Below the pieces are notes generated by a model. It was not told the origin of the DNA. It worked only from the letters and a program-made list of their open reading frames with translations, and searched no databases. From Promethearchaeota archaeon Loki_b32 (GTDB taxonomy: Archaea > Asgardarchaeota > Lokiarchaeia > Sigyniarchaeales > SOKP01), in the NCBI GenBank assembly GCA_005223125.1, contig NJBH01000010.1, forward strand, positions 50,220 through 114,219: 64,000 nt of DNA. Direction: 5' to 3'. Both the position numbers and the translations under genes were made by a program. Positions 17,507 through 32,402 of this stretch are shown here, piece by piece (position 1 is the first letter of the stretch; every line of letters begins with the position of its first letter).

Positions 17507-18796
17507 CTGATTAAAAAAAGAAAACTTTCTGAAATTAGAAAAAAGATTGAGAAAGGCTCAGCAGTTGTAATAACTGTCCAAGAATTAATAGATCGTATTA
17601 GTGATGGTGAAAAGGTTAAATTTGAAGATGTTGATATTGTGACCACAGCGACTAAAGCTCTTATGAGTGGAATAATGGGAATCTTTTCTTTTCGTCTTTC
17701 GCCACCTAAAACATTGAGAAAATTTATGGAAGTTCAAATTAATGGAATACCAACTTTTCCAGGACCTTGTCCAAATGAATATTTAGGCATAGTAGATCTT
17801 ATTATTTATGGAACTGCTCAAAGTCAAGCGATTGAGAATTATTGTGGGGGATCTCTTTTTAGGGAGATGGTAGAAGGAAAATTAGTAAATATTTCAGCTA
17901 AGAGTGCTGAGGGTGAAACCATTGAAAAAGAGATGAAATTAGAGGATATGCAATTTGCTAAATTAATGGGTACAAGACAAGCTATTAAAAATTATAACGC
18001 AATGATTAATTGTGAATCATATCAAGTCGATACTATTTTTTCTTGTTTACCTTTTGAACCTAACAAGTCAGAACTCACATTCTCTGGGTGTGGTGCGTTA
18101 AATCCTTTTCAAAATGATCCAGAATTTGAATCTCTTGGCGTTGGGTTACCTATATTAGTTAATGGTAATATTGGTCATCTTATAGGCCCAGGTACTCGAA
18201 ATTACATAGCAAAACCCAATATGATGACAATGGCGCCAATGCGCGGTATGAAACCAGAATATATGGGTGCTTTTAAGACTTCATGTGGATTAGAACCAAT
18301 TTGTAGTATTGCCATTCCTATTCCAATTTTAAATGAAAATATCTTCAATAATATAGTAAAATCTGATAAGGAAGTTCCATTAACAATTTTAAGTCTTGTA
18401 GGAAGAGAAAAAGTCGGTGAAATTACTTATGGTGATGTTTGGGATAATAATTTTCTCATGAAGTTCAATCCTGATGCTTGTGAAAATTGTGAAGAATGTA
18501 AAGCAATTGATAAATGTCCTACAAATGCTTTTATTGTCAAAAATGGTCTGATCACAGCAATAGATCGATCCCGTTGTTTTAATTGTGGAAATTGCACTTA
18601 TTTATGTCCAGAAGCTTTCAATTTAGACTTAAACAAAATTAAATTCGAAGGTTCTGAACTCCCTATTGTTTTAAGGCAATCAGATAGATATGGGGCGATA
18701 AAATTAGCTGAACAATTAAAATCGATGATCCTAAAGGGAGATTTCCCTTTAAGAAAACCAATTAGCAAATTGCAATTTGCTGAGGAAGTAAAATAA
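17507..18796 (+). CDS. COG1900/DUF39 (aspartate-semialdehyde sulfurtransferase / methanogenesis marker 16 family) with ferredoxin domain; proposed CTG start
   Basis: EIRKKIEKGSAVV, DVDIVTTAT.ALMSG, GPCPNE.LG.VD, FSGCG.LNP.QNDP, two CxxCxxC-type..CP motifs, RQSDR. Confidence 0.85.
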   Translation: MIKKRKLSEIRKKIEKGSAVVITVQELIDRISDGEKVKFEDVDIVTTATKALMSGIMGIFSFRLSPPKTLRKFMEVQINGIPTFPGPCPNEYLGIVDLIIYGTAQSQAIENYCGGSLFREMVEGKLVNISAKSAEGETIEKEMKLEDMQFAKLMGTRQAIKNYNAMINCESYQVDTIFSCLPFEPNKSELTFSGCGALNPFQNDPEFESLGVGLPILVNGNIGHLIGPGTRNYIAKPNMMTMAPMRGMKPEYMGAFKTSCGLEPICSIAIPIPILNENIFNNIVKSDKEVPLTILSLVGREKVGEITYGDVWDNNFLMKFNPDACENCEECKAIDKCPTNAFIVKNGLITAIDRSRCFNCGNCTYLCPEAFNLDLNKIKFEGSELPIVLRQSDRYGAIKLAEQLKSMILKGDFPLRKPISKLQFAEEVK

Positions 18797-18813
18797 AATA
18801 CAGAAGAAAAATT

Positions 18814-19257
18814 ATGTCTGATTTGAAATTACCTACGTTTGATCAAATTGGTATCTTAGTGAATAACATTGAGAAAACTGCAGAATTATATACTGGTTTA
18901 ATGAATTTTCAAGGTAAAATTAATATTATTGAACAAACCACTATTGCGAACTATAAAGGAAAAGAAGTATCGTTTAAAATGAAAGAAATAATGCAAAATT
19001 TTGGTGGAAAGCAGTTTGAAATTGTTGAATTATTAGAATCTACAGGTGATCATTTATATTCAGAATTTCTTAAAGAATGTAAAACGGGATTACATCATCT
19101 AGGCGTATATACTAAAAATGCTGAGACATTCATTAATCATTTTAAGAATGAATGCAATATTGACGTAATTCAAACGGGAAAAGTTGGAAGAGTTAAATTT
19201 TACTATTTAGATACTAAAAAAGTTTTAGGCTATTATCTCGAATTGATTGCTCTCTAA
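18814..19257 (+). CDS. VOC/glyoxalase superfamily (methylmalonyl-CoA epimerase-like)
   Basis: DQIGILV, QFEIVE, GLHHLG, YLDT..VLG..LEL. Confidence 0.85.
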   Translation: MSDLKLPTFDQIGILVNNIEKTAELYTGLMNFQGKINIIEQTTIANYKGKEVSFKMKEIMQNFGGKQFEIVELLESTGDHLYSEFLKECKTGLHHLGVYTKNAETFINHFKNECNIDVIQTGKVGRVKFYYLDTKKVLGYYLELIAL

Positions 19258-19323
19258 TTTGTACATCTTTGTTGAATCTCTTTTTATAATAAACTTTATT
19301 TTTTATTTGTAATAAAACTAAAT

Positions 19324-21057
19324 ATGTCAAATCAAGTTTTAAATGGTGGCGATTTGGTTGTTAAATGTCTTTTAAAGGAAGGAGTTACCAAAATCTTTGG
19401 TCTTGTTGGTGGAGAATTACTAAAGATTTATGATGCTATTGAACGCTGGGGTCGTGAAGAGGGAATTGATACTGTAATGGTCCGGCACGAACAAGCAGGA
19501 GCACATATGGCAGACGCATGGGCAAGAGCAACTGGAGAGATAGGTGTTTGTTTAGGGACAGCAGGACCCGGAGTCACTCATTTGATTCCAGCTGTTGCTG
19601 CGGCATATGCTGATTCGATACCAATGTTGGTAATTGGTGCTCAAGTTGGTAGAATGTTTGACAATATTGGAATATTACAAGGAGATTTAGACCAAATGAG
19701 TCTAATGAAACCTATTACAAAATTACAAATTTCAGTAGAAGATCCATATGAAATACCACATGCGGTTCAAAGATGTATAAAAACTGCGATGGCGGGAAGA
19801 AGAGGTCCTGTCTTTCTCGAGTTGAGGGAAACAGCATTAGTTAGAAGAGCTACTGTGAATGATCTTGAAAAAATTCGTGATCCAGAGCATTATCGCCCAT
19901 TATATAGACCTGCTGGAAATAAAGAAGGTATAATTAAGGCAGTTGAGCTTTTAAAGACGGCTGACAAACCTTTAATTGTAGCTGGTGGTGGTATCAATGC
20001 TTCAGAAGCCTTTGATGAGGTAAGCAAGTTATCAGAAACGTACAATATTCCTGTTGGAACAACTATAAGTGGAATAGGAGTAGTTACTACAAATAAAACA
20101 TTTATAGGGGGAAAATTGACAGCAATGGCATATAGAAGAGCTGCTATTGAAGCAAATGTAGTTCTATCTCTTGGTTGTAAATGGGACCATACGATTATCT
20201 ACGGAGCTTCCCCATTTTGGAATCAAGATCAAAAAATTATCCAAGTGGATATAGACCCGACTGAAATTGGTAAAAATAGACCTGTAAACATTGCTATTGT
20301 TGGAGATGCTAAAGCCGTTATTAACCAACTATTAGAAGAAATGGAAAAGAATCTTCCTAAAGAAAAAGTCACTGAATGGTCTCAATGGAATGAATATTTG
20401 CAAGATATTAGGAAAACTGATAAACAACAATTAGAAAAAATGTTAAAATCTAGTAAATTACCTATGAAACCTCACAGGCTTGTATATGAAATCTTAGATT
20501 TCATACCAGATGATACACAATTGGTTATCGATGGGGGAGATATTTTTGTTTTTTCATTGGATTTAATAGGGCTTAAACCACGCCCCCCAAGAAGTTTTTA
20601 TCGCTCTGTTTCAATGGGTCATTTAGGTATTGGGATTCCGTACGCTATTGCCGCACAATTGGCTAACCCAGATAAATTAGTTGTATGTATTACTGGAGAT
20701 GGTAGCTTTATGTTTAACGTACAAGAATTGGAAACAGCGATAAGGTTAAATCTACCTATAATTACTATAATTGGAAATAATTGCGCGTGGGGTATGATAA
20801 AATCAAATCAAAAACTTAATTTGGGTAAAAGATACTGTGATGTAGATTTTCCCCCAATAGATTATGCAGAAATTGCGCGTGGTTTTGGATGTTATGGAGA
20901 GAAGATAAGTAACCCTGAAGATATAAAACCAGCATTGCAACGTGCTATTGATTCAAAAAAACCTGCAGTTATTGATGTAGATATTGCTTTTGAAACGCCC
21001 CCCGCAATGAAATTACTTGGTCTCTTTAAGAAGGAAAAAGGATTATTTGGTAAATAA
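19324..21057 (+). CDS. Thiamine-diphosphate enzyme, acetolactate synthase / 2-hydroxyacyl-CoA lyase family
   Basis: RHEQAG.HMAD, TAGPG, GDGSF...N motif. Confidence 0.9.
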   Translation: MSNQVLNGGDLVVKCLLKEGVTKIFGLVGGELLKIYDAIERWGREEGIDTVMVRHEQAGAHMADAWARATGEIGVCLGTAGPGVTHLIPAVAAAYADSIPMLVIGAQVGRMFDNIGILQGDLDQMSLMKPITKLQISVEDPYEIPHAVQRCIKTAMAGRRGPVFLELRETALVRRATVNDLEKIRDPEHYRPLYRPAGNKEGIIKAVELLKTADKPLIVAGGGINASEAFDEVSKLSETYNIPVGTTISGIGVVTTNKTFIGGKLTAMAYRRAAIEANVVLSLGCKWDHTIIYGASPFWNQDQKIIQVDIDPTEIGKNRPVNIAIVGDAKAVINQLLEEMEKNLPKEKVTEWSQWNEYLQDIRKTDKQQLEKMLKSSKLPMKPHRLVYEILDFIPDDTQLVIDGGDIFVFSLDLIGLKPRPPRSFYRSVSMGHLGIGIPYAIAAQLANPDKLVVCITGDGSFMFNVQELETAIRLNLPIITIIGNNCAWGMIKSNQKLNLGKRYCDVDFPPIDYAEIARGFGCYGEKISNPEDIKPALQRAIDSKKPAVIDVDIAFETPPAMKLLGLFKKEKGLFGK

Positions 21058-21097
21058 TTTATACTTTATTTTAATATTTTTAAAGAATGATAGTATT

Positions 21098-21892
21098 ATG
21101 AATGAAAAGTTTTTGGTAGGGAAAGTAGCTCTTGTTACAGGAGCAGGAAGTGGATTTGGTCGAGAAATGGCGATTGCTTTTGCAAGTAAAGGTGCTAATT
21201 TAGTATTAAATGATATAAACCTTGAAAGCATCGAAGAAACTCGAAATATTATCTTAAAATCATATAAAGTTGATATATTGCTAATAAAAGCAGATATTTC
21301 TGTTTTTAATCAAGTTAAAGAAATGAGAAAAGAAGTTTTTGAAAGATTTGATAATATTTTTATATTGGTTAATAATGCTGGTGTTAGATTAGGTACCTTT
21401 TCACTTGTTACAAAAGAAGAGGGTTATAATAAAGTCATGGATGTAAATGTTAAAGGTGCTTGGAATGTGACAAAAGCATTTTATAGAAAAATGAGTAAAC
21501 AAGATTTCAAACCTATCGCAGGAAAAATTATTAATATAGCATCATGTGCAGGTACAGAATGTGGCGCTAATCCATATATTGGGATATATAGTGTAAGTAA
21601 GGCAGCACTTATTAGTTTTACAAAGCTTTGGGCACTGGAACTCGGATCCAGTAATATCACAGTGAATGCAATTTGTCCCGGTTTATTTTTAACACCTATG
21701 TACAAGAATAATCCTGAATTTATTCGAGAATTTATGAAAAGAAGAAATGTTAGGCTTCCAATAGATAGAATTGGTGAAGCAAAACAAGTAGCCGATGTTG
21801 CTTTATTTTTAGCTTCACCTGCTTCAGATTATATAACCGGCCAGAATATAATTTTAGATGGCGGGATGACTATTAGTATCAACAAGCTCTAA
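21098..21892 (+). CDS. Classical short-chain dehydrogenase/reductase
   Basis: TGAGSGFG, NNAG, YSVSK, VNAICPG; ATG21098 preferred. Confidence 0.92.
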   Translation: MNEKFLVGKVALVTGAGSGFGREMAIAFASKGANLVLNDINLESIEETRNIILKSYKVDILLIKADISVFNQVKEMRKEVFERFDNIFILVNNAGVRLGTFSLVTKEEGYNKVMDVNVKGAWNVTKAFYRKMSKQDFKPIAGKIINIASCAGTECGANPYIGIYSVSKAALISFTKLWALELGSSNITVNAICPGLFLTPMYKNNPEFIREFMKRRNVRLPIDRIGEAKQVADVALFLASPASDYITGQNIILDGGMTISINKL

Positions 21893-21940: not shown

Positions 21941-21978
21941 AAAAAAAGAAGAGAAAATAGAAAATTCCCTTCGTGGGA
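21941..21978 (-). terminator. Hairpin + pyrimidine tract after micro-gene 1
   Basis: TCCC-ACGAA-GGGA then TTTCTATTTTCTCTTCTTTTTTT. Confidence 0.6.
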
Positions 21979-22011
21979 TTATGCCGAGGGTGGAGTTATA
22001 GTGCAAGGCAT
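21979..22011 (-). CDS. 10-aa micro-peptide MPCTITPPSA (copy 1)
   Basis: GGAGG SD 8 nt before ATG; TAA; terminator; paralog at 26129. Confidence 0.65.
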   Translation of the reverse strand: MPCTITPPSA

Positions 22012-22303
22012 TTATTTGGCCTCCTAAAATCATTTAAGTAATGAATTGCATAAATATAAGGTAAACTAACCTTGAATTTGTCACAGTGTTATTATTTTAT
22101 TAGGATCGTTTTATTTAAAACACCCATAAAATCTAACAAAAAAGGAGGTGTTTCTATAAATAAATTGAATTAACATAATTGGAAAATTCTTGAAATCAAA
22201 AAGAATTTCTTGAAAATTGAAGAAATGAGTTATTGGTAAATAATTCTACTGCACACGCTGAAGATATCACAAAATATAAAAATTAATTAATCAAATATTT
22301 TTA

Positions 22304-25300
22304 TTGTTTGAATCAATAAAAACATTAAAACAAATTAACAGATTTATAATAAAACTTCTAATGACAAGGTTAAATGTTAAATTTCTTATAAATACTTCAA
22401 TAGAAAGTATTTTATCAAATTTAAATACTATATTTGAAAACCTTCTTCAAGAAATCAAATCATATCTTAATTTAGATTTAAAAGATTCAAAAATAAAAAT
22501 CGTTTATCATGAAGAAAACATATCTTCTGATAATATAAATCAAGATATTTTTAAGGTAGGGTTAATAAAAACTCAAAAGAATAATTCTCTATCAGTATTT
22601 ATTTCAAGAACTTATAGAAAATTTGTAAGAATGATTTTGTTGCGTGAAGCGTATAAATTTTTTATTCCAAGAGGCTTACAAGATAATAGAATTATTAACA
22701 TTTTTATTAACCAAAAAGTTGAAATTGATCTTCAAAAATCTGAATATATTGAAGATTGGAAAGATTTTAAAAGAAAAAGTGTCATTAATTATGATTTTAT
22801 GGAGGCAGAATTTGATAGATTAGAAAATTTCTTGAAACAAGAAAGTATAGGAAATAGACCAAGTCCATTCCAATTTTTCTTTATTTGGATAAGAAGAAAC
22901 ATTCAATTAATTGAAGATATTAAAGAAAATATTTATGATCTAATTTTTCAAGAATATAATCTAAGATATAACGAATATAATGATGAAATTATAGAGACTA
23001 TTAGTGTTATAACCAAAATATTTTATAAAATAAGGAGTTATCGCTCATTATTAGATTATCAGCAATATTTTAAAAAATTTAAAGATTCTGGAATTATCCA
23101 AACTAACTTAAGTTTAAGGAAATTTACAGCGAACATGCAGTGGATTAAGAATTTTAGCAATATAGCGCCTAGTTTTCAAGTTAATTGGCTTAGATTAGAT
23201 ATAATATCAATTTTATGCTTTATGAAATTTAATCCACTTATTAAAACTTCGAAAATCATGCAGGTTATTAACTTATTACCATTTTTTATGATGCCTAGAG
23301 ATACAAAAAATAGTTTTGGGATAGAAATTATTGGTCAATTTCTTATTCCAAAATGTTACGTAAAAGATTTAATATTTTTTTTAGGAAAATTGGAATCGAA
23401 TGGTTATCTTATTGAAAAAGAGTTATACATTATTACGGGAACGGGTTATACGGTTAATTTAAACTGCTTTAAAAGTTTTGCGAGCAAAAGTATAATACTC
23501 AATCCAGATAAACGAGATTATAATAAAGAATATGAAATTGAGTTTAGTATGGATTATGGCCTTGAAACATTTAATTCAAATCCTTCACTTCTTGATTGGC
23601 TTTTAATTGATAGGATTCGCTATTTTTCAATAACAGGATTAGGATTTGAAAGGAAATCAGAAATGTTAAGAGCATTGAAATCTGATCTTCTCAATGAAGT
23701 TATTAGCCAACGGAATTTAATTAGTGACATAAAAAAAAATTTGAATAGAATTCATAATTCACCTAATCTTAAAAGTAAATTTCTAGATTTTATAAATACC
23801 AATAAAGATTTTGGATTTTTTTATATAAAACAAATATTAAATGATTACATTACTACCTTTGATTCAATAAATAAAGTTTTATTAGAAAACCCATTAATTA
23901 ATAATTATTATCATCTTCAAAAATTTATTAAGGAACATGGGATTTCAAATTCAATTGAAGAAAATAATGTATTAAAAGCACTCAAAAAGAATATACTAAG
24001 AGAATTCATTTCTTTATATTTTAAATCTAAAAAGGCTTTTAAAGAGAAAGTTGATGAATATCGCAATTTCTTTAACATATTTAAAAGTCTTTATGATCTT
24101 AAGATTTTTAACTTAAATGCTGTCAATTCCATAATAAAGGATAAATCTTTAATAAATAGAATATACGAATCTAAAGAAGAAAAACTTAAAAGTTCATATG
24201 AAAGATATAAAGCTTATAACATCACAAATAATGCCATAGAACAGAGATTAGATGATTTTTTAAATATAGATCCCCCAATAATTCAACCAAGTTTATTAGG
24301 TACAATTGCGGGTATCAAACGTTTCACGAGATATTATGTTGCTCTGATTTTAAAAGATACACCACAGACGAGAGAAGGTATTGAAAATTTGAAATTGTTA
24401 TTTCCAATGGTTATTGTAATACCAATGTTGGAATATAAAACTCGTGAACATTATGTTTATTTTGAACTTCAAATACCAAATTTAAGTTTAAAAGAAAAAC
24501 AATTATTAAATTCTATTTTATATAATATTTTTAAAGATAATATCATAAATATCAAATCCTATTTATTCAGCGGGTTTTATGAAGCATTTTCAAGAAAGGA
24601 TTTTTATGACTTTGAAAAGGCAAATTTCTTTTATACTAAAGATCTGTTTGAAGAATTCTTTCACTATGTTCAATACAAATTAAATAATAATATACACCCC
24701 ATTTCAGAATCATTTAGTAACATTTCAAGAGATTTATGGGGAAAAAAGACTGAACTATCAAATTTCATCACCCTCATAGAGAAACGTGTTTCAAAAGAGC
24801 ACATAGATTTTAACCTAAACAATATTAATAAATTGTTAAGTTATTACAAAAATCTTGAATCAAATTTACTAGATTTAGAGAATTTTAAAAATTCTAAGAA
24901 TAAATACTTCTTCAGAAATTATATTAAATCGATAAAAATTATTCCCTCATTTCAACATTTTGGATTTGGGCAATATTATTTATATTTTTATCCAAGAGAT
25001 TTAAAGGATATAGATTTTAAGCATATATTACACAATTCCTTTCAAAAAATTAAATTTCCAATAAATATTGATAATTCTAATTCATTTTTGATTAAATTCA
25101 TATGGCCATACCAAAATCCAAATAAGTCAGTACTCAATTGGTTATTAAAATCTAAAAAAGTAATACGTGAATATTGTTTATTTTTCGTTAAAAAAGTCTT
25201 TCAAATTTTTCATTTCAATTATAATCTTAGTGCTAATGAATGGGATTTAGATCCAAATCGTTTTAGAATTTATTTTCAAAAAATTTTATTTAATCCCGAT

Positions 25301-25972
25301 TATGAACTTATTATACCTAGGATGAAAGAATTCAAGATCGGTGATATAAACATTTCAAATTATTTCACTCCAGACTCATCGGAATATATTGCGTTAACCC
25401 AATTATTTAATTGGAAATCTTTGGATATAAAATCGTATTTAGGAACTCGAAATTACAATATTATTAACCAAATAGTTGAATTACTAGAGAAAAAACTTAT
25501 ATTTCCTTTCATATCTGTAAAAAATCTAGATTTGAGCCAGAGGCTTTATATAATTTTACCTAAGGTAATTAGGGAAGATATTAATATACTTATCAAAATT
25601 TTTAATTTTTTTAATATTGGATTTATCTATGAAATTGAAGGAGAATATTACATTCAGGGATTAAATGAAGAGATTAAGTTTGAAAATGGGTTAATGATTA
25701 AACTTTATCTTCCAGATTGCCAACTTGATGAATTTGAAAAATTATTTGATTTAATATTTGAATATTTGGGGTTTAAACATTACTTAATATTAAGTAATTT
25801 GGTTAATGGAGATGATTTCCTTAAATCTATTTATGGTAATTTAGATTTTTTGAAATTGTATAACCCACTAAAAAATTTAATTTGGAATAATAAAGATAAA
25901 ATTTGGATGAATCATAAATTATTTACAAATAAATTTGAAAAAATATATCCACCTTTTAACATAAAAGAATAA
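22304..25972 (+). CDS. Large protein with repeated Lrp/AsnC-like segments, putative regulator
   Basis: 1222 aa; recurring I.P....(L/F)(G/D) motifs followed by beta-alpha units; start may be ATG22361. Confidence 0.6.
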   Translation: MFESIKTLKQINRFIIKLLMTRLNVKFLINTSIESILSNLNTIFENLLQEIKSYLNLDLKDSKIKIVYHEENISSDNINQDIFKVGLIKTQKNNSLSVFISRTYRKFVRMILLREAYKFFIPRGLQDNRIINIFINQKVEIDLQKSEYIEDWKDFKRKSVINYDFMEAEFDRLENFLKQESIGNRPSPFQFFFIWIRRNIQLIEDIKENIYDLIFQEYNLRYNEYNDEIIETISVITKIFYKIRSYRSLLDYQQYFKKFKDSGIIQTNLSLRKFTANMQWIKNFSNIAPSFQVNWLRLDIISILCFMKFNPLIKTSKIMQVINLLPFFMMPRDTKNSFGIEIIGQFLIPKCYVKDLIFFLGKLESNGYLIEKELYIITGTGYTVNLNCFKSFASKSIILNPDKRDYNKEYEIEFSMDYGLETFNSNPSLLDWLLIDRIRYFSITGLGFERKSEMLRALKSDLLNEVISQRNLISDIKKNLNRIHNSPNLKSKFLDFINTNKDFGFFYIKQILNDYITTFDSINKVLLENPLINNYYHLQKFIKEHGISNSIEENNVLKALKKNILREFISLYFKSKKAFKEKVDEYRNFFNIFKSLYDLKIFNLNAVNSIIKDKSLINRIYESKEEKLKSSYERYKAYNITNNAIEQRLDDFLNIDPPIIQPSLLGTIAGIKRFTRYYVALILKDTPQTREGIENLKLLFPMVIVIPMLEYKTREHYVYFELQIPNLSLKEKQLLNSILYNIFKDNIINIKSYLFSGFYEAFSRKDFYDFEKANFFYTKDLFEEFFHYVQYKLNNNIHPISESFSNISRDLWGKKTELSNFITLIEKRVSKEHIDFNLNNINKLLSYYKNLESNLLDLENFKNSKNKYFFRNYIKSIKIIPSFQHFGFGQYYLYFYPRDLKDIDFKHILHNSFQKIKFPINIDNSNSFLIKFIWPYQNPNKSVLNWLLKSKKVIREYCLFFVKKVFQIFHFNYNLSANEWDLDPNRFRIYFQKILFNPDYELIIPRMKEFKIGDINISNYFTPDSSEYIALTQLFNWKSLDIKSYLGTRNYNIINQIVELLEKKLIFPFISVKNLDLSQRLYIILPKVIREDINILIKIFNFFNIGFIYEIEGEYYIQGLNEEIKFENGLMIKLYLPDCQLDEFEKLFDLIFEYLGFKHYLILSNLVNGDDFLKSIYGNLDFLKLYNPLKNLIWNNKDKIWMNHKLFTNKFEKIYPPFNIKE

Positions 25973-26128
25973 TTGTTTTTTTTAGAATCCGACTGAATTC
26001 TGATTATTTTTATAGGAGTTTAAATAATAAATTCCTAAAAATAAGATAACACAGAGACAAATTTAGAATATAAATATTTCTTATTTACTAAAATCATTAA
26101 TTAAGTCATTCCTATAGGGTTAAAAAAA

Positions 26129-26161
26129 ATGCCAGGTACAATAACTCCTCCATTAGCATAA
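26129..26161 (+). CDS. 10-aa micro-peptide MPGTITPPLA (copy 2)
   Basis: AGGGT SD-like; ATG..TAA; 8/10 identical to copy 1 with four synonymous changes. Confidence 0.65.
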   Translation: MPGTITPPLA

Positions 26162-26202
26162 TCCTGCAGAGCGGGATTTCTATTTTCTCTTCTTTTTTTT
26201 TT
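26162..26202 (+). terminator. Hairpin + pyrimidine tract after micro-gene 2
   Basis: TCCTGC-AGA-GCGGGA then the same TTTCTATTTTCTCTTCTTTTTTT. Confidence 0.6.
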
Positions 26203-26263: not shown

Positions 26264-27619
26264 TTATTTATAGCTATGTTTTAAATAAAATAAGGGAATA
26301 AGCGAGAAGAAAGATAAGAAGCCAACCATTAAGATCAAAGATTCTGTTGAAACAAAAGAGGATAAGAAGGTTCCCATTGGAATAAAAATTACACTAGCTA
26401 CTGCTAAACCTAATTTAAAAATTTGAAATGAAAATGTTTGATACTTCATATTTTTAGAAATTGAAATTGATAAGGAGATATAATTTAACATCATTATTCC
26501 TGCTACAAACCAGATTAAACTATATATAAATAATAAGATAATTAAATTTGAAAAGATCATGAGAAATGTCAATAAGATATAAATACAGTTGGTTATAATA
26601 ATAGCATATATTCTTTTATTTGCTATAAAATCCAGATCTAATTGTTTATTAAAATCTGGATTTAAATTAATCAATTTTTTTTTGATATTTCTTTTAGAGT
26701 TATTTGAAATCTTTTGACCAATCATCCATCCTAGAGTATTCAATAAAAGAAAAAAAACATAACTAAAGGAGAAGATCTTTAATCCTGTTTGTCCATATTT
26801 AGATGTAATCCAAGACACTAATGGATATTGGTACAACCTATCACTCCATATCAATATATAAGACAGTGTTAATAAAAGTATTTGAAAATGATGGGTTTTA
26901 TTGGAATTATCCTTTGTTTTGCGTGTGTGTGTGTGTGTGTAGGGCGTATTCTTGAAATCAAAACAAAATAAAGCAGTTAATATTGGAAGGATTACAATTC
27001 CTCCAAAGAGAAAGAAATAAATCCATAGTTCTAAATTAAAGATGTCATTAACTAAGATTATAAAAATTATAGAAGATATAAATCCACCAAAATTTGCCGA
27101 AATATTAACTATTATCAAATTTCTATCTTTAATTACCTCATTTAAAGATGATTCTAAAATAATTCGACTCATACACACTTTGATTATTTCATTACTTAGC
27201 AAATTTAATGCAAGAAAAGAACCAAAAAGGTATAAAAACACACCTGAAAAGATTGTACAAATAAAACTTAATATACACACTAAAATAGAAAGAAATAATA
27301 TCTTTTTTCTCTGGCGGTTATATTTATCAAAAAAGAAACCTAACGCAGGAGCTAAAAGTAAAACTGAAAAAGTAAAAACTTGTATAAATGCAAGGTCACT
27401 TCTATTTACATTTAATACATTTAATAGATACACGGGTATATAAACAACAAGATAAGTGTTTATAATACTTAAGGTAAAGTAGACAACAAATAATCCTATA
27501 TAATTTAATTTGATTTTTTTAGATGGCTGAAAAAGTAGAATTTCTTTTTTTAACTTAAGAGCTGAAGATTCTGTTAAACTTTCTTTTAATAATTCAGTTT
27601 TAAATCTTGAGTTTTTCAT
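26264..27619 (-). CDS. MFS transporter
   Basis: About 12 TMs; GFFFDKYNRQRK (MFS motif A-like). Confidence 0.8.
   Translation of the reverse strand: MKNSRFKTELLKESLTESSALKLKKEILLFQPSKKIKLNYIGLFVVYFTLSIINTYLVVYIPVYLLNVLNVNRSDLAFIQVFTFSVLLLAPALGFFFDKYNRQRKKILFLSILVCILSFICTIFSGVFLYLFGSFLALNLLSNEIIKVCMSRIILESSLNEVIKDRNLIIVNISANFGGFISSIIFIILVNDIFNLELWIYFFLFGGIVILPILTALFCFDFKNTPYTHTHTRKTKDNSNKTHHFQILLLTLSYILIWSDRLYQYPLVSWITSKYGQTGLKIFSFSYVFFLLLNTLGWMIGQKISNNSKRNIKKKLINLNPDFNKQLDLDFIANKRIYAIIITNCIYILLTFLMIFSNLIILLFIYSLIWFVAGIMMLNYISLSISISKNMKYQTFSFQIFKLGLAVASVIFIPMGTFLSSFVSTESLILMVGFLSFFSLIPLFYLKHSYK
26923..26940. repeat. (GT)9 microsatellite in the MFS central loop (encodes THTHT)
   Basis: gtgtgtgtgtgtgtgtgt. 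Confidence 0.9.
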
Positions 27620-27764: not shown

Positions 27765-28349
27765 TTATTTCCCACGACCTTTATTTGCTCCAATACTGGG
27801 GCGGGTTTTTTCTGAACCCCATCCTTTTTTATGTAGGCCTCTAGCTCTTTTCCCGGCAGATGTCAGACCGCGCGTTACTCTTTTTGTATGTTGAGGCTCA
27901 GTGATCCAATTTATTTTAGGATCAGTTCTTATCACTGGGTGGCTTGGGTCAACCAATATCGCTTCATAATAATGGTGGCGTCCATCGGCATATACTTTAT
28001 AACTGTTTAGGACTTGCATATTCGGGTATTTTCTTTGAACACGTTCCTCCGCAACCCATTGAAGATTTTTTCCAGTCGTATACTTAGAAACCCCCATAGC
28101 TCTCGGTTTTCTCCCCCGTTTTGGACGGACTTTATGCATTCCTCCTTTCCTTATCCTTGCTCTCACAACTACGTATCCTTGTTTTGCTTTATATCCTAAG
28201 GATCTTGCTCGATGTATCTTGGTTGGTCTCTCTACCCTTTGAATCGATCTACCTTTTCGGTATTCAATTCCGCGATACCAATATGGTGTTTGATATCCAA
28301 TTTCATGTTTCTCAAAGGTCTCTTTGATATATTTATAGCCAGACTTCAC
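27765..28349 (-). CDS. rpl15e: 50S ribosomal protein L15e
   Basis: ARSLGYKAKQG, AEERV.RKYPN..VLNSY, RGLTSAGK..RGL. Confidence 0.97.
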   Translation of the reverse strand: MKSGYKYIKETFEKHEIGYQTPYWYRGIEYRKGRSIQRVERPTKIHRARSLGYKAKQGYVVVRARIRKGGMHKVRPKRGRKPRAMGVSKYTTGKNLQWVAEERVQRKYPNMQVLNSYKVYADGRHHYYEAILVDPSHPVIRTDPKINWITEPQHTKRVTRGLTSAGKRARGLHKKGWGSEKTRPSIGANKGRGK

Positions 28350-28512
28350 TTTTTCAAAGCACTCTTAAATTGTTATAACATTTAAAATTCACTGAAATTA
28401 ATTAATTTTATCATTTTCTAATCTACATAAAAAAGTTGTTAGATTGTATAATAAAATTTAAACGTCATATAAGATATTTTATTAAGTATAAGACATTAAA
28501 CATTTAAATAGA

Positions 28513-28587
28513 GGACCTATAGCCTAGCCTGGATAGGGCGTCGGACTTCTAATCCGAAAGTCGCAGGTTCGAATCCTGCTAGGTCCG
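28513..28587 (+). tRNA. tRNA-Arg(TCT), intronless
   Basis: GGACCTA/TAGGTCC acceptor; TCGGA-CTTCTAA-TCCGA anticodon arm; GGTTCGAATCC. Confidence 0.95.
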
Positions 28588-28612
28588 CTCGTTATTATTA
28601 CTAAACTCATGT

Positions 28613-29752
28613 TCATGATCTTAATTTTAAATCTAGAACCACTAACTCAGACTTCGGGGAAAAATGTTTTACAATTTTAGAATTAAGAATTTTGTCAATA
28701 GAGTAATTAAATTTACTTAAAGTTACTTTAACATTTTCAATCGTCTTTTCAATCACATCGGGTTTTTCAGTGAATTGATAATAATGTAAAATCCCCTCAG
28801 ATTTTTTCATTAAAAAACATGCAACATTTATATAATTGAGTGCTTTTTCGGGCAAATTCATTATAATTCTATCAGCCTTATTTTGAATATTTTTACCTAT
28901 TTCACTTGAGGGAAGAATTAGAGAACTTATATCTAAGTTATAAGGTATTACATTACCTAATAGTCTATTAAGACTGATGTTTTCTTTTATGTAATGATAA
29001 GCCACCGGATTTATGTCAAAAGCATGAATCATTACTTTATGTCTCTTAGCAATTTGAATAGCAATAGGACCTACTCCACTAAATAAATCAAAGATAACCT
29101 CACCTTCATTTATAGGAGCTGTAGCAAGGCGTTTTCTTTCAAAAACTAACCTAGGAGTGAAAAATATCTTTTTTATATCTAACTTAAAGCTACAACCATT
29201 TTCTCTGTATAAAGTCTCTGATTTGTCTTTCCCCTTCAAAAGTTTTAAATCTCTAACACGAAATTCCCCTTTAATTTCACTTGTTTTTTCATAAGTAGTT
29301 TTTACTTTTTTATTTACTGAGATTAAAGCATCAGCAATTATAATCTTGAGTGAATCATCAATTTTTGCATCTAAATCATTAAATTTATCAAATTCCAGTA
29401 TTGCTATATCCCCTATAATGTCATAAGAATTAGGTATATAATGAAAGAGACTCTCAGGAAGTATGTTTTTTAGAGCTTCTTTAAGAGATTTAAATTTATA
29501 ATCATTTCTTATTATTCCTTTACGCTTAATTATTTCATATTCAAACTGTTGATTTTTTAAAATATCAACAATTTCATTTTCGTCCAAAATTGGAAATAAA
29601 ATGAAATTATCTTCGTGAAGAACTTTCATTTTTTTATAAATAACTTGTAAATTTTTCTTAAATTGCTTGATAAAAGCTTGACCATCAGTGTTCTTAATTT
29701 TAACATATCTGGTGTCTTCAAATTCTTCTTTTCGCATATGTGTCTTAATCAC
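28613..29752 (-). CDS. trm5: tRNA (guanine37-N1) methyltransferase, Trm5 family
   Basis: SYDIIGDIA, GEFRVR, FFTPRL..ER, DLFSGVGP, DINP, IMNLP. Confidence 0.9.
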   Translation of the reverse strand: MIKTHMRKEEFEDTRYVKIKNTDGQAFIKQFKKNLQVIYKKMKVLHEDNFILFPILDENEIVDILKNQQFEYEIIKRKGIIRNDYKFKSLKEALKNILPESLFHYIPNSYDIIGDIAILEFDKFNDLDAKIDDSLKIIIADALISVNKKVKTTYEKTSEIKGEFRVRDLKLLKGKDKSETLYRENGCSFKLDIKKIFFTPRLVFERKRLATAPINEGEVIFDLFSGVGPIAIQIAKRHKVMIHAFDINPVAYHYIKENISLNRLLGNVIPYNLDISSLILPSSEIGKNIQNKADRIIMNLPEKALNYINVACFLMKKSEGILHYYQFTEKPDVIEKTIENVKVTLSKFNYSIDKILNSKIVKHFSPKSELVVLDLKLRS

Positions 29753-30161
29753 TAAATGTTATCGTAATTTTTTTTCCTGGAATTTTTAATTTATCTATCA
29801 ATTTTTGATTTAATTCATTAGAAGCTTTATTACATTTAATTAATATGGTTCTGCTACAAATAAAATTACTTTTCCTGAATACTATATCTTTTTCATCTAG
29901 AAGAGTTAAATTTGGATCACCAAACCCATAGAATTGATCTTCTACATTGTCAACTTTAATTAAAACATTAACTTTTTTTCCTCTACGGATCAAATCTTTT
30001 AAATCTGAACTGATATCTGCACATGCTTTAGAGCACTTATTTCCTAAGATACAAGTCCCTTTTTTTGTTAAATAGTCCGCTGTTGTTAACTCGATTGTTG
30101 ACTTATGAGAACATTGTATATTTTTATGTCCATAAGCAGTAATTTCTTCAATTATATCCAT
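29745..30161 (-). CDS. DUF371 family protein
   Basis: GHKNI...H.STIE.T...LT..G.CI.G; VFRKS.F...RT. Confidence 0.88.
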   Translation of the reverse strand: MDIIEEITAYGHKNIQCSHKSTIELTTADYLTKKGTCILGNKCSKACADISSDLKDLIRRGKKVNVLIKVDNVEDQFYGFGDPNLTLLDEKDIVFRKSNFICSRTILIKCNKASNELNQKLIDKLKIPGKKITITFSD

Positions 30162-30165
30162 TTAA

Positions 30166-31812
30166 TTAATCAGCTTTGAAAAATAATAACATATCTTTAA
30201 TTTCGTTAGATATTATGAAATTAAGGTTATACTTGGTTTTGAGTAAGTTTTTTATTCCATAAATAGGATGATCTTTATAGAAATTAATATTTTCTTCATA
30301 TTGATTAAAAAAAGTTTCAGGAATTAAAATTCCAAATTTTTTATATGACATATGATAAGATCGGATGTAATTCTCTGCTTTTAGCAAGCAATTTTTATAT
30401 AAATTTTCTTTCATTTCAGTGGAACTGATTGCTTCATGTTGGCCCATTGGAAATGTATCTAAAAGTTCAAGAGGAATAATTCCGAAAAAATTAGAAAGAA
30501 AAACAATATGTATAGATTTACGTGGAATTATTTCAGTTCTATTTATTTCACCTAACCAATTATTTATTGATGGTGAAAATTTTCCTTTAATATCTAATTC
30601 AGGTAATATTATTAAATATTGAGCGTCTAATGGTGGCCGATAATTTGTACTTAATTTTTTAATATATCTGTGAATCAAGGGTCTACTTAAACTTTCGGAA
30701 GAAACAAAAAGCCGGCCACACTTTTTATATAATTTCTCATGGAACTCAAAAAAGTCAAGATTCTTCTTAACAATGTTAAAAGCTTTAACTAAATTCGGAT
30801 GATTTCTAATTCTTTGGTCTACAAGTTCCCAGAGGTTTCCTTCTCTAATAGCCTGGCGAACAGTTTTTAATTCTGAGAAAGATAAATACAAATTATGCTT
30901 TGCTAATAGTTGGGTTTTTAAATCATCCTCAAAAGCCTTAAGCTCATTAGGGGTGTATTTCATGCAAATAGGACAGTGACATGGGAATTCAGTTAATTCT
31001 TCTATATTCTTTGTTCCTGTAGAAAGAGTGAAATACCGGTTTTTCTTAGCATAGAGGATATAGGCTGCGGAATCCATTAGATCACATCCACAAGCGATTG
31101 CTAAAGAGAAAAATTGAGGTAATCCTAGACCAAACATATGAATAGGCTTATTTGGGATAATATTCTTTTTTACTGTTAGCAAAACTTCAAGAGTTAATTC
31201 AAATCTGTAATCAAGAAATGCTTTAACAAGCCCTCCTATTGCGTAGACTGCAAAATCTAAATGACTCATTTCAACTGCGCTTTTTTTTAATAAGTCTTTA
31301 TACTTCCCTCCATGAACAGGTCCAAACCAGTTACAATTTGTATTTCTACGTCTTTCGATATTATCTTTAGCTCTTTTAAGAGTCTCATTTACTTTGAACA
31401 TAGCTTGTTCATACGTATCATCAAGTTGAACTGGTAAATCTAAAATAACCGGGAAATCTGAATCAATTTTTTCTTGGAATGCTTCGATATCAGCAGGATT
31501 AATAACCATTTCTTTATTATTATACATATATTGCTGAAATGCGCCGCTATCAGTTGCTATTAATCCATCAAAGTTCAAAAATTCATGAATACCTTTATTT
31601 AAAACTATTTCCCTTTTACTTCGGTTCTGATAAATAATATAAGCATTTGTAAAAACTGCTTGAGCACCTATCTCTTTTAAATCTACCATAGGTAGCAAAT
31701 TTTTATAAGGATGGATGACAGGAAACATATTTGGTGTGATCATCTCTTTTCCATTAATATTTATCTTACCAATTCTCCCCATTGCATCTACATCTTGTAC
31801 CTCAAAATTCAA
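30166..31812 (-). CDS. tgtA: Archaeosine tRNA-guanine(15) transglycosylase (no obvious PUA domain)
   Basis: TNAYII, TDSGAFQ, HMFGLG, G.DLMDSAAY, C.C..C..HN zinc site, GNLWELV. Confidence 0.93.
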   Translation of the reverse strand: MNFEVQDVDAMGRIGKININGKEMITPNMFPVIHPYKNLLPMVDLKEIGAQAVFTNAYIIYQNRSKREIVLNKGIHEFLNFDGLIATDSGAFQQYMYNNKEMVINPADIEAFQEKIDSDFPVILDLPVQLDDTYEQAMFKVNETLKRAKDNIERRRNTNCNWFGPVHGGKYKDLLKKSAVEMSHLDFAVYAIGGLVKAFLDYRFELTLEVLLTVKKNIIPNKPIHMFGLGLPQFFSLAIACGCDLMDSAAYILYAKKNRYFTLSTGTKNIEELTEFPCHCPICMKYTPNELKAFEDDLKTQLLAKHNLYLSFSELKTVRQAIREGNLWELVDQRIRNHPNLVKAFNIVKKNLDFFEFHEKLYKKCGRLFVSSESLSRPLIHRYIKKLSTNYRPPLDAQYLIILPELDIKGKFSPSINNWLGEINRTEIIPRKSIHIVFLSNFFGIIPLELLDTFPMGQHEAISSTEMKENLYKNCLLKAENYIRSYHMSYKKFGILIPETFFNQYEENINFYKDHPIYGIKNLLKTKYNLNFIISNEIKDMLLFFKAD

Positions 31813-32402
31813 TCGAAAAAATCACCTATTTTATCTTTCTGAAATAATTCTTCTAGCCAATCAATCTTACCTAGTATTAGATCATCATCAATTTTATTTC
31901 CATTAATAATTTTTATAATTTTTTCTGAAATCTCATTAAAAGAAGAAGTACTCGTATCAATTTCATAAATTGGAATGGATAAGCTTTTTTGAAGTAAATA
32001 GTTGGCACAATTTCCTAAGATTTCGCTCTGGACATTTTCAATTATTTTTTCTTTGAGATAACCTCGACTTTCTAATCTTTTCATTAATTCATAGGGTTCG
32101 CATCTTAATAAGATAGTAATGTCAAAATATTCATTAGGGATTATATCAGCAAAATGTCCTTCAATTATAAGAATTGATTCACTTGATTGTTGAAAATTTT
32201 TAATTAATTCGATAATATATTGAATTAATTTATCTGTATCAATGACTTGTGTTTCTCTCTTCTTATCATATTTAGTTATGTATTCATCTGAAAGTGCCAT
32301 TTGGTTTAAAGAGATTACTTGAGCATTATTTATTTCCGATACCATTTTAGAGATTGTAGTCTTTCCAGTTCCCGGCGTCCCAGATATTATAACTATTTTC
32401 AT
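31809..32402 (-). CDS. Adenylate kinase AK6/Fap7 family
   Basis: GTPGTGKTT, IIEGH, RL..RGY..EKI.EN..SEI. Confidence 0.9.
   Translation of the reverse strand: MKIVIISGTPGTGKTTISKMVSEINNAQVISLNQMALSDEYITKYDKKRETQVIDTDKLIQYIIELIKNFQQSSESILIIEGHFADIIPNEYFDITILLRCEPYELMKRLESRGYLKEKIIENVQSEILGNCANYLLQKSLSIPIYEIDTSTSSFNEISEKIIKIINGNKIDDDLILGKIDWLEELFQKDKIGDFFD

Follow-up and report, generated by a model that had tools for sequence, protein, structure and literature searches.

Micro-genes beside giant Lrp-like proteins of Lokiarchaeia: a candidate system of exported peptide signals

Do two tiny open reading frames (ORFs) flanking the gene of a giant protein encode peptides, and do these act together with the giant protein and a neighbouring transporter? 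The question arises from a 64,000-nt stretch of Promethearchaeota archaeon Loki_b32 (the window; the genome comprises 4.13 Mb with 29.9% GC), for which an original prediction proposed a module of short peptide, receptor and transporter analogous to RRNPP quorum sensing. Our analysis points, with reasonable probability, to an exported peptide signal and a cognate cytoplasmic receptor and regulator, RRNPP-like in working and unrelated in descent. The module is backed by the linkage of micro-genes to the family of the giant, by a signal-peptide form of the precursors in other loci, by co-occurrence of a transporter of the major facilitator superfamily (MFS) and by the Lrp-like fold of the giant; what did not stand is the likeness to receptors of the tetratricopeptide repeat (TPR) type known from RRNPP systems.

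Both ORFs were found as predicted. ORF 1 (21979..22011, minus strand, start at 22011) is divergent from the giant gene and encodes a Pro-rich peptide of 10 aa that begins with Met-Pro and lacks a signal peptide, and ORF 2 (26129..26161, plus strand) encodes a second 10-aa peptide with 8 of 10 residues identical to the first. The earlier counts of eight differing positions, six of them at third codon positions, and of four synonymously changed codons were correct. The peptide pattern MP-x-TITPP-x-A matches only these two ORFs in the whole genome. Each ORF is part of a homologous unit of about 190 nt, reaching from about 115 nt upstream to about 40 nt downstream (71% identity, E 9e-16), and the two units are inverted around the giant gene. 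Unit 1 (21941..22130, minus strand) consists of a TATA box (22119-22112), a Shine-Dalgarno (SD) site (22025-22020), the ORF, a hairpin-forming region and a pyrimidine tract (21963-21941). Unit 2 (26010..26199, plus strand) has the same order with a TATA box (26019-26026), an SD site near 26116-26119, an 8-bp hairpin (26160-26178) and a pyrimidine tract (26177-26199). The TATA-like box lies 108-110 nt upstream in both units. Of the signals expected at both copies, the hairpin after the stop (folding z = -2.6 and -3.6 compared to shuffles) and the U-tract, a 23-nt pyrimidine tract identical in both units, were confirmed, while the SD-like site is strong at copy 1 and weak at copy 2. Since the ORF is conserved barely more than the unit (25 of 33 nt are identical between the copies), the window pair alone cannot prove a coding function over a duplicated non-coding unit.

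What relatives share is the gene arrangement and not the motif. A search for the exact motif gave matches in none of 160 genomes of the class outside the host, and viral contigs gave no match either. Metagenomes yielded one near-identical locus (L063; loci are given as L numbers) and one match in unrelated GC-rich DNA (L064), which was treated as chance. The flanks of giant homologues carry different Gly/Pro-rich short ORFs with the same surrounding signals. A rule for micro-ORFs was fixed on the first 30 loci and then applied to 75 new validation loci, with 1511 genes of the host genome as controls. A divergent upstream micro-ORF followed by a U-tract was present at 34 of the 75 validation loci vs 8 of the 1511 control genes, and a micro-ORF on either side at 41 vs 22. 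By a second rule, in which a few misassignments were corrected afterwards, 74 of 111 loci received a peptide call: 50 a bare, 23 a signal-type and one a repeat-type peptide. The predicted linkage of micro-genes to the family of the giant is thus supported by both rules; side and orientation of the micro-gene relative to the giant vary among loci.

Bare peptides are Gly/Pro-rich 8-14-mers, most of which end in Pro or Gly. The 62 bare calls comprise 58 different sequences, and Pro is the second residue in 47. Hypervariability extends over the entire peptide and is not confined to the two specificity positions originally proposed. The Pro residues close to either end should confer resistance to exopeptidases. 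In bare genes the stop is followed by a hairpin (median z -3.0). Many of those without an SD site have a TATA box 25-29 nt upstream, the pattern of leaderless archaeal genes. Signal-type precursors comprise 35-40 aa, with one to three basic residues at the start, a hydrophobic core, mostly small residues before the tail and a tail of 8-11 aa; 26 of 27 calls end in Pro. A signal peptide followed by a short tail is recognizable by sequence in about 23 loci, including that of the host's other paralogue, and is lacking in the 10-mers of the window. A leader plus repeated cores was seen at L061 and L105 only, and the window peptides have no leader.

Two further arrangements were observed. Three different peptide genes lie beside one giant in L044, L104 and L124. 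L061 (5439-5576; with L173) and L105 (with L174) encode precursors of 46 aa that contain three repeats of a core with Cys. Genes for YcaO and MFS proteins follow, and these precursors are candidates for a new archaeal type of ribosomally synthesized and post-translationally modified peptides (RiPPs).

For the codon test, pairs were chosen solely by the identity of the giant. The predicted wobble bias was found in the signal-type ORFs (49 of 108 changes at third positions, p=0.006) and not in the bare ORFs (34 of 89, p=0.19). A test on pairs picked by peptide identity (64 of 127 at third positions) was rejected as circular. The residues of bare peptides change fast; start and stop, whose loss had been named as speaking against the prediction, persist together with length and recur across about 70 loci while the DNA diverges.

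The candidate receptor is the giant itself (22361..25972, plus strand). The ORF between the two copies exists as described, but its product, given as 1222 aa from TTG 22304, probably starts at ATG 22361 and then has 1203 aa, with close homologues of 1201-1210 aa. Searches of Pfam and NCBIfam gave no family above cut-off for the giant, and no membrane segment is predicted in it. Named homologues are mostly from Promethearchaeota (Lokiarchaeota). Of 134 other genomes in the host family, 114 carry the gene, with one to four copies each; it was found in none of 26 genomes from the remaining families of the class. For the N-terminal domain, 171 relatives turned up among 1.8 billion representatives, and the 150 relatives listed are about 1200 aa long or shorter pieces.

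The structure model of the giant, which is of high confidence (pLDDT 89.2, pTM 0.91), predicts a zincin-like N-domain (22361..22975, residues 1-205) and four Lrp/AsnC-like modules (22976..25795) with ferredoxin-like domains at residues 281-358, 658-735, 869-950 and 1058-1145 and a helical insert at about 431-640. The predicted combination of a helix-turn-helix (HTH) and a RAM-type ferredoxin-like domain recalls Lrp/AsnC proteins: residues of about 203-371 align over whole Lrp/AsnC regulator chains (Z 7.6-8.3, root mean square deviation (rmsd) about 5), and neighbours in a structure atlas are archaeal two-module AsnC-type proteins carrying HTH_AsnC-type. The HTHs of modules 1 and 4 are best conserved, and the first keeps a basic recognition helix (Ser251/Arg253/Lys254/Phe255 conserved at 72-97%). 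In the N-domain the His-Glu-x-x-His zinc motif is lost: the first zinc His is replaced by Arg95, which is found in 122 of 138 aligned relatives (His in none), Glu96 is kept in 126 of 138, and the second His is gone, with His at position 99 in a single relative. It is plausible from the model that the N-domain is a pseudo-peptidase whose conserved metal-less cleft serves as a peptide-binding site, and the whole protein is regarded as a putative peptide receptor and transcription regulator. For Lrp domains 1 and 2 relative divergence rises with peptide difference (0.94 to 1.29 and 1.06 to 1.38, respectively; the pairs are not independent), and an all-pairs correlation was nil.

An MFS gene (26264..27619, minus strand, PF07690) adjoins micro-gene 2, as originally noted, and is convergent with ORF 2. 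It is the sole match to its query in the host genome, and its product is a putative exporter of the bare peptides. One MFS family is the commonest neighbour of the giant (48 of 114 loci, on either side) and shares its family-restricted range (97 of 134 genomes of the host family, 0 of 26 outside). The transporter is present in 51 of 51 genomes with a bare or repeat peptide vs 2 of 10 with signal-type precursors only, and the eight without it come from three genera; the contrast holds inside the host genome too. For several seemingly orphan MFS genes, a peptide gene and part of a giant were located where the contig ends. In the long flanks of many loci, peptide, tailoring enzyme and MFS genes follow in one direction. 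Tailoring genes occur in part of the family and encode B12 radical-SAM proteins, YcaO (beside the repeat-core precursors), ThiF or a methyltransferase. The giant is present with all peptide forms, and tailoring enzymes vary or are absent. As an additional observation, an acetate-CoA ligase alpha-like gene ranks second in frequency among the neighbours of the giant, with 27 of 114 loci (L070 and 26 others).

With either of two alternative routes, signal peptide or dedicated MFS, the outcome is a short peptide of the same kind, an argument for action of the product outside the cell. The giant occurs with every form and is cytoplasmic and regulator-like, and importers are present, as three oligopeptide-binding proteins (PF00496) are encoded in the host genome; for these reasons an exported signal with a cognate receptor is favoured. 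Each micro-gene would form its own small transcript, translated into a Gly/Pro-rich 8-14-mer (in the window two 10-mers, with Met probably removed). Bare peptides may be exported by the linked MFS protein, in some lineages after the action of a tailoring enzyme, and a tail of this kind would in other lineages be exported by means of a signal peptide and then released by cleavage. The peptide would accumulate outside, re-enter via general oligopeptide ABC importers and bind the cytoplasmic giant in the zincin cleft that lacks its metal, at the first two Lrp effector domains, or at both. Binding would change the interaction of the giant with DNA and hence the expression of its putative target genes, which could then follow cell density. 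A wider claim, for which we see about even chances, is that Lokiarchaeia evolved their own gene-encoded system of peptide communication. It would combine a new receptor class, in which a pseudo-zincin is joined to four Lrp modules, with two export routes that can replace each other, and chemical tailoring specific to each lineage would define many private channels, up to several in one genome.

Several results weigh against the signalling interpretation. No called peptide was found in 37 of 111 giant loci, some of which are contig ends or detector misses, and the bare peptides lack a significant wobble bias in the unbiased test. The association of MFS and precursor type is suggestive and not proven, because the tree gives only four supported independent contrasts, which are not significant. 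In L204 peptide, radical-SAM and MFS genes are kept and no giant was found in that genome, and in L188 peptide and MFS genes lie beside the unrelated gene hypF. Nearly all of the top 50 fold matches of the N-domain are zincins, with a middling score for the best one (Z 7.2, rmsd 4.7, 165 aligned). The Lrp fold also serves enzymes, and the enzyme NirDL is the top match of the giant (Z 13.4, rmsd 5.1, 296 aligned, on the fused module pair at residues 208-771). A shared operator was not found.

These points leave room for four other explanations, in descending order of probability. The foremost, which we hold to be rather unlikely, is a RiPP-like product cluster: the cell would export the peptide as an effector (antagonist, chelator or other metabolite), the role of the giant would be limited to regulating the cluster or to self-protection, and no signalling between cells would take place. 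The one-directional order of peptide, B12 radical-SAM, YcaO, ThiF or methyltransferase and MFS genes in many relatives, the repeat-core precursors beside YcaO and the retention of production genes without a giant in L204 would fit such a cluster, and the layout recalls microcin C. No tailoring gene, however, lies next to the peptides of the window, and most signal-peptide loci have none in the flanks read; the products, which are short and flexible Gly/Pro peptides, share no warhead, and their extreme sequence turnover fits specificity codes. With still lower probability the giant is an enzyme (peptidase, cyclase or decarboxylase-like) that matures the peptides, a role that the match to NirDL and the conservation of Arg95 and Glu96 in about 90% of the family would suit. 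The missing zinc motif, the conserved basic HTH helix and the persistence of production genes without a giant speak against it, and precursors with a signal peptide would exit the cytoplasm before the tail is freed.

An intracellular role of the peptides in their producer, whether as modulators of the giant or the MFS protein or as leader peptides for a downstream operon, appears quite improbable, even though in many relatives micro-gene and hairpin are followed by an MFS or tailoring operon, the window peptides carry no export signal and Pro-Pro can stall ribosomes. In the window each copy faces the 3' end of a convergent gene (an SDR gene ending at 21892 and the MFS gene ending at 26264). 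The original statement that neither copy leads into a downstream gene therefore holds in the window and fails for many relatives, where the micro-gene leads into an operon; likewise, the geometry of an attenuator leader, with the ORF upstream of the controlled operon, is absent from the window and shown by some relatives. The signal-peptide form implies export, many micro-genes are leaderless stand-alone units, and side and orientation vary. Least probable is that the units are non-coding (a small RNA or terminator duplicates) with ORFs by chance. The low excess of ORF conservation over the flanks in the window and the lack of wobble bias in bare peptides would agree with this, but start, stop, length and Gly/Pro bias recur over about 70 loci of diverging DNA, the signal-type ORFs show third-position bias, and a search of Rfam gave nothing at gathering score.

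An exported signal with the giant as receptor can be compared with known systems. RRNPP modules (Rgg/SHP, Rap/Phr, NprR/NprX, PlcR/PapR, AimR/AimP) likewise combine a short ORF beside the gene of a cytoplasmic regulator with a short mature peptide, and share hypervariable peptides and the presence of oligopeptide importers; their precursors have a signal peptide and a C-terminal tail, a form recognizable here by sequence in part of the loci. The small peptide gene next to the receptor gene is the feature recovered by the linkage counts given above. Repeated cores also occur in RRNPP propeptides (PMC11343458). RRNPP receptors bind their peptides, which are unmodified, via TPRs (PMC4873490). The model of the giant shows ferredoxin-like domains and a zincin-like head without a TPR match in Pfam, so that kinship of the receptor to RRNPP proteins was not borne out; the differences are the pseudo-zincin with four Lrp-like modules, the bare form with MFS, optional tailoring and the archaeal host. 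Lrp/AsnC regulators and the siroheme decarboxylases NirDL/AhbAB resemble the giant in HTH and ferredoxin-like effector domain. They differ in that Lrp/AsnC proteins are single modules of about 150 aa with a Pfam/NCBIfam match, whereas the 1203-aa giant has four modules per chain, a helical insert, a zincin-like head and no Lrp match in Pfam. The known Lrp effectors are amino acids, not peptides. The N-domain may have the fold of zincin metallopeptidases, whose zinc motif it lacks.

RiPP clusters (microcin C; the streptococcal radical-SAM RiPPs controlled by Rgg/SHP) are similar in that, in part of the family, a tiny precursor, hairpin, tailoring enzyme and MFS gene form one operon. They differ because here the lineages vary in the type of tailoring enzyme, the window has none, and bare peptides have no leader; microcin C needs Asn at the peptide end, whereas Pro or Gly prevails here. 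ThiF-like genes beside peptide genes of the giant in L170, L171, L172 and L182, with a methyltransferase gene in L170 and L172 and an MFS gene in L172, show a layout reminiscent of microcin C clusters. Cell-to-cell signalling in archaea is represented by the Haloferax disk-forming signal and the carboxy-acyl homoserine lactones of Methanosaeta, for which no gene-encoded pair of peptide and receptor is described. The Haloferax signal is an unidentified small molecule read via a two-component system (PMC12240190, PMC13464002). Our literature search found no description of the peptide/giant module. Parts and their descent match no described family, while the inferred logic parallels RRNPP.

Co-folding, proposed along with the original prediction, was applied to the second cassette of the host genome, where a paralogous giant (L184:1654-5316, minus strand, 40% identical to the window giant) lies divergent from a 37-aa signal-peptide precursor (L184:5595-5705, plus strand) and no copy of the MFS family is present. 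Residues 12-960 of this giant with its own precursor scored 0.37 vs 0.00 for the best control, which is weak support and concerns the paralogous pair; the runs agree in at least 42% of contacts, with a partner pLDDT of at least 36. In comparison, 58 of 80 solved complexes and 2 of 110 mismatches attained this mark, whereas only 7 of the 80, but both mismatches, did so at 0.60 or below. Unless the pairing was likely to begin with, a pass at such a level is wrong in the majority of cases.

Quorum sensing in archaea has been described as largely unexplored (PMC13464002). Here, candidate ligands and a candidate receptor are named in Asgard archaea, close relatives of eukaryotes, so that synthetic peptides and a single purified protein would suffice to test for peptide messaging in these organisms, with no need for cultures. 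If the proposal is true, Lrp modules or a dead peptidase would read peptides, and a natural library of about 60 ligand-receptor pairs would be at hand.

Minor observations concern the history and surroundings of the cassette. DNA searches with the 190-nt unit gave AT-rich noise alone outside the host genome, and no RNA holder was listed. No strand-switch junction linking the two units was seen in DNA contigs; the MFS stretch was nearly uncovered in two of four runs, which proves nothing. Inverted micro-gene units bracket the giant in one clade (L034, at both contig ends, L037, L038 and the window), with identities between the units ranging from complete over the roughly 190 nt visible (L034) down to the 71% of the window, and L035 has a mirror order relative to the MFS gene. 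These arrangements point to inversion or gene conversion of the giant between the two units. A transposon was dropped as an explanation, as no transposase-like fold or family was present. In L204 peptide ORF sites lie at 1100-1130 and at about 1295-1325; the second peptide-like ORF has no normal start codon and is possibly decaying. A third, truncated giant copy, consisting of the C-terminal 200 aa or so, is located near a tRNA-like sequence (G000 contig C48, 128836-129483). The window cassette is framed by housekeeping genes, on the left for homocysteine synthesis, glyoxalase, a TPP enzyme and SDR (17639-21892) and on the right for L15e, Trm5, DUF371, archaeosine TGT and a kinase (27765-32402), and in relatives the cassette recurs near these same genes.

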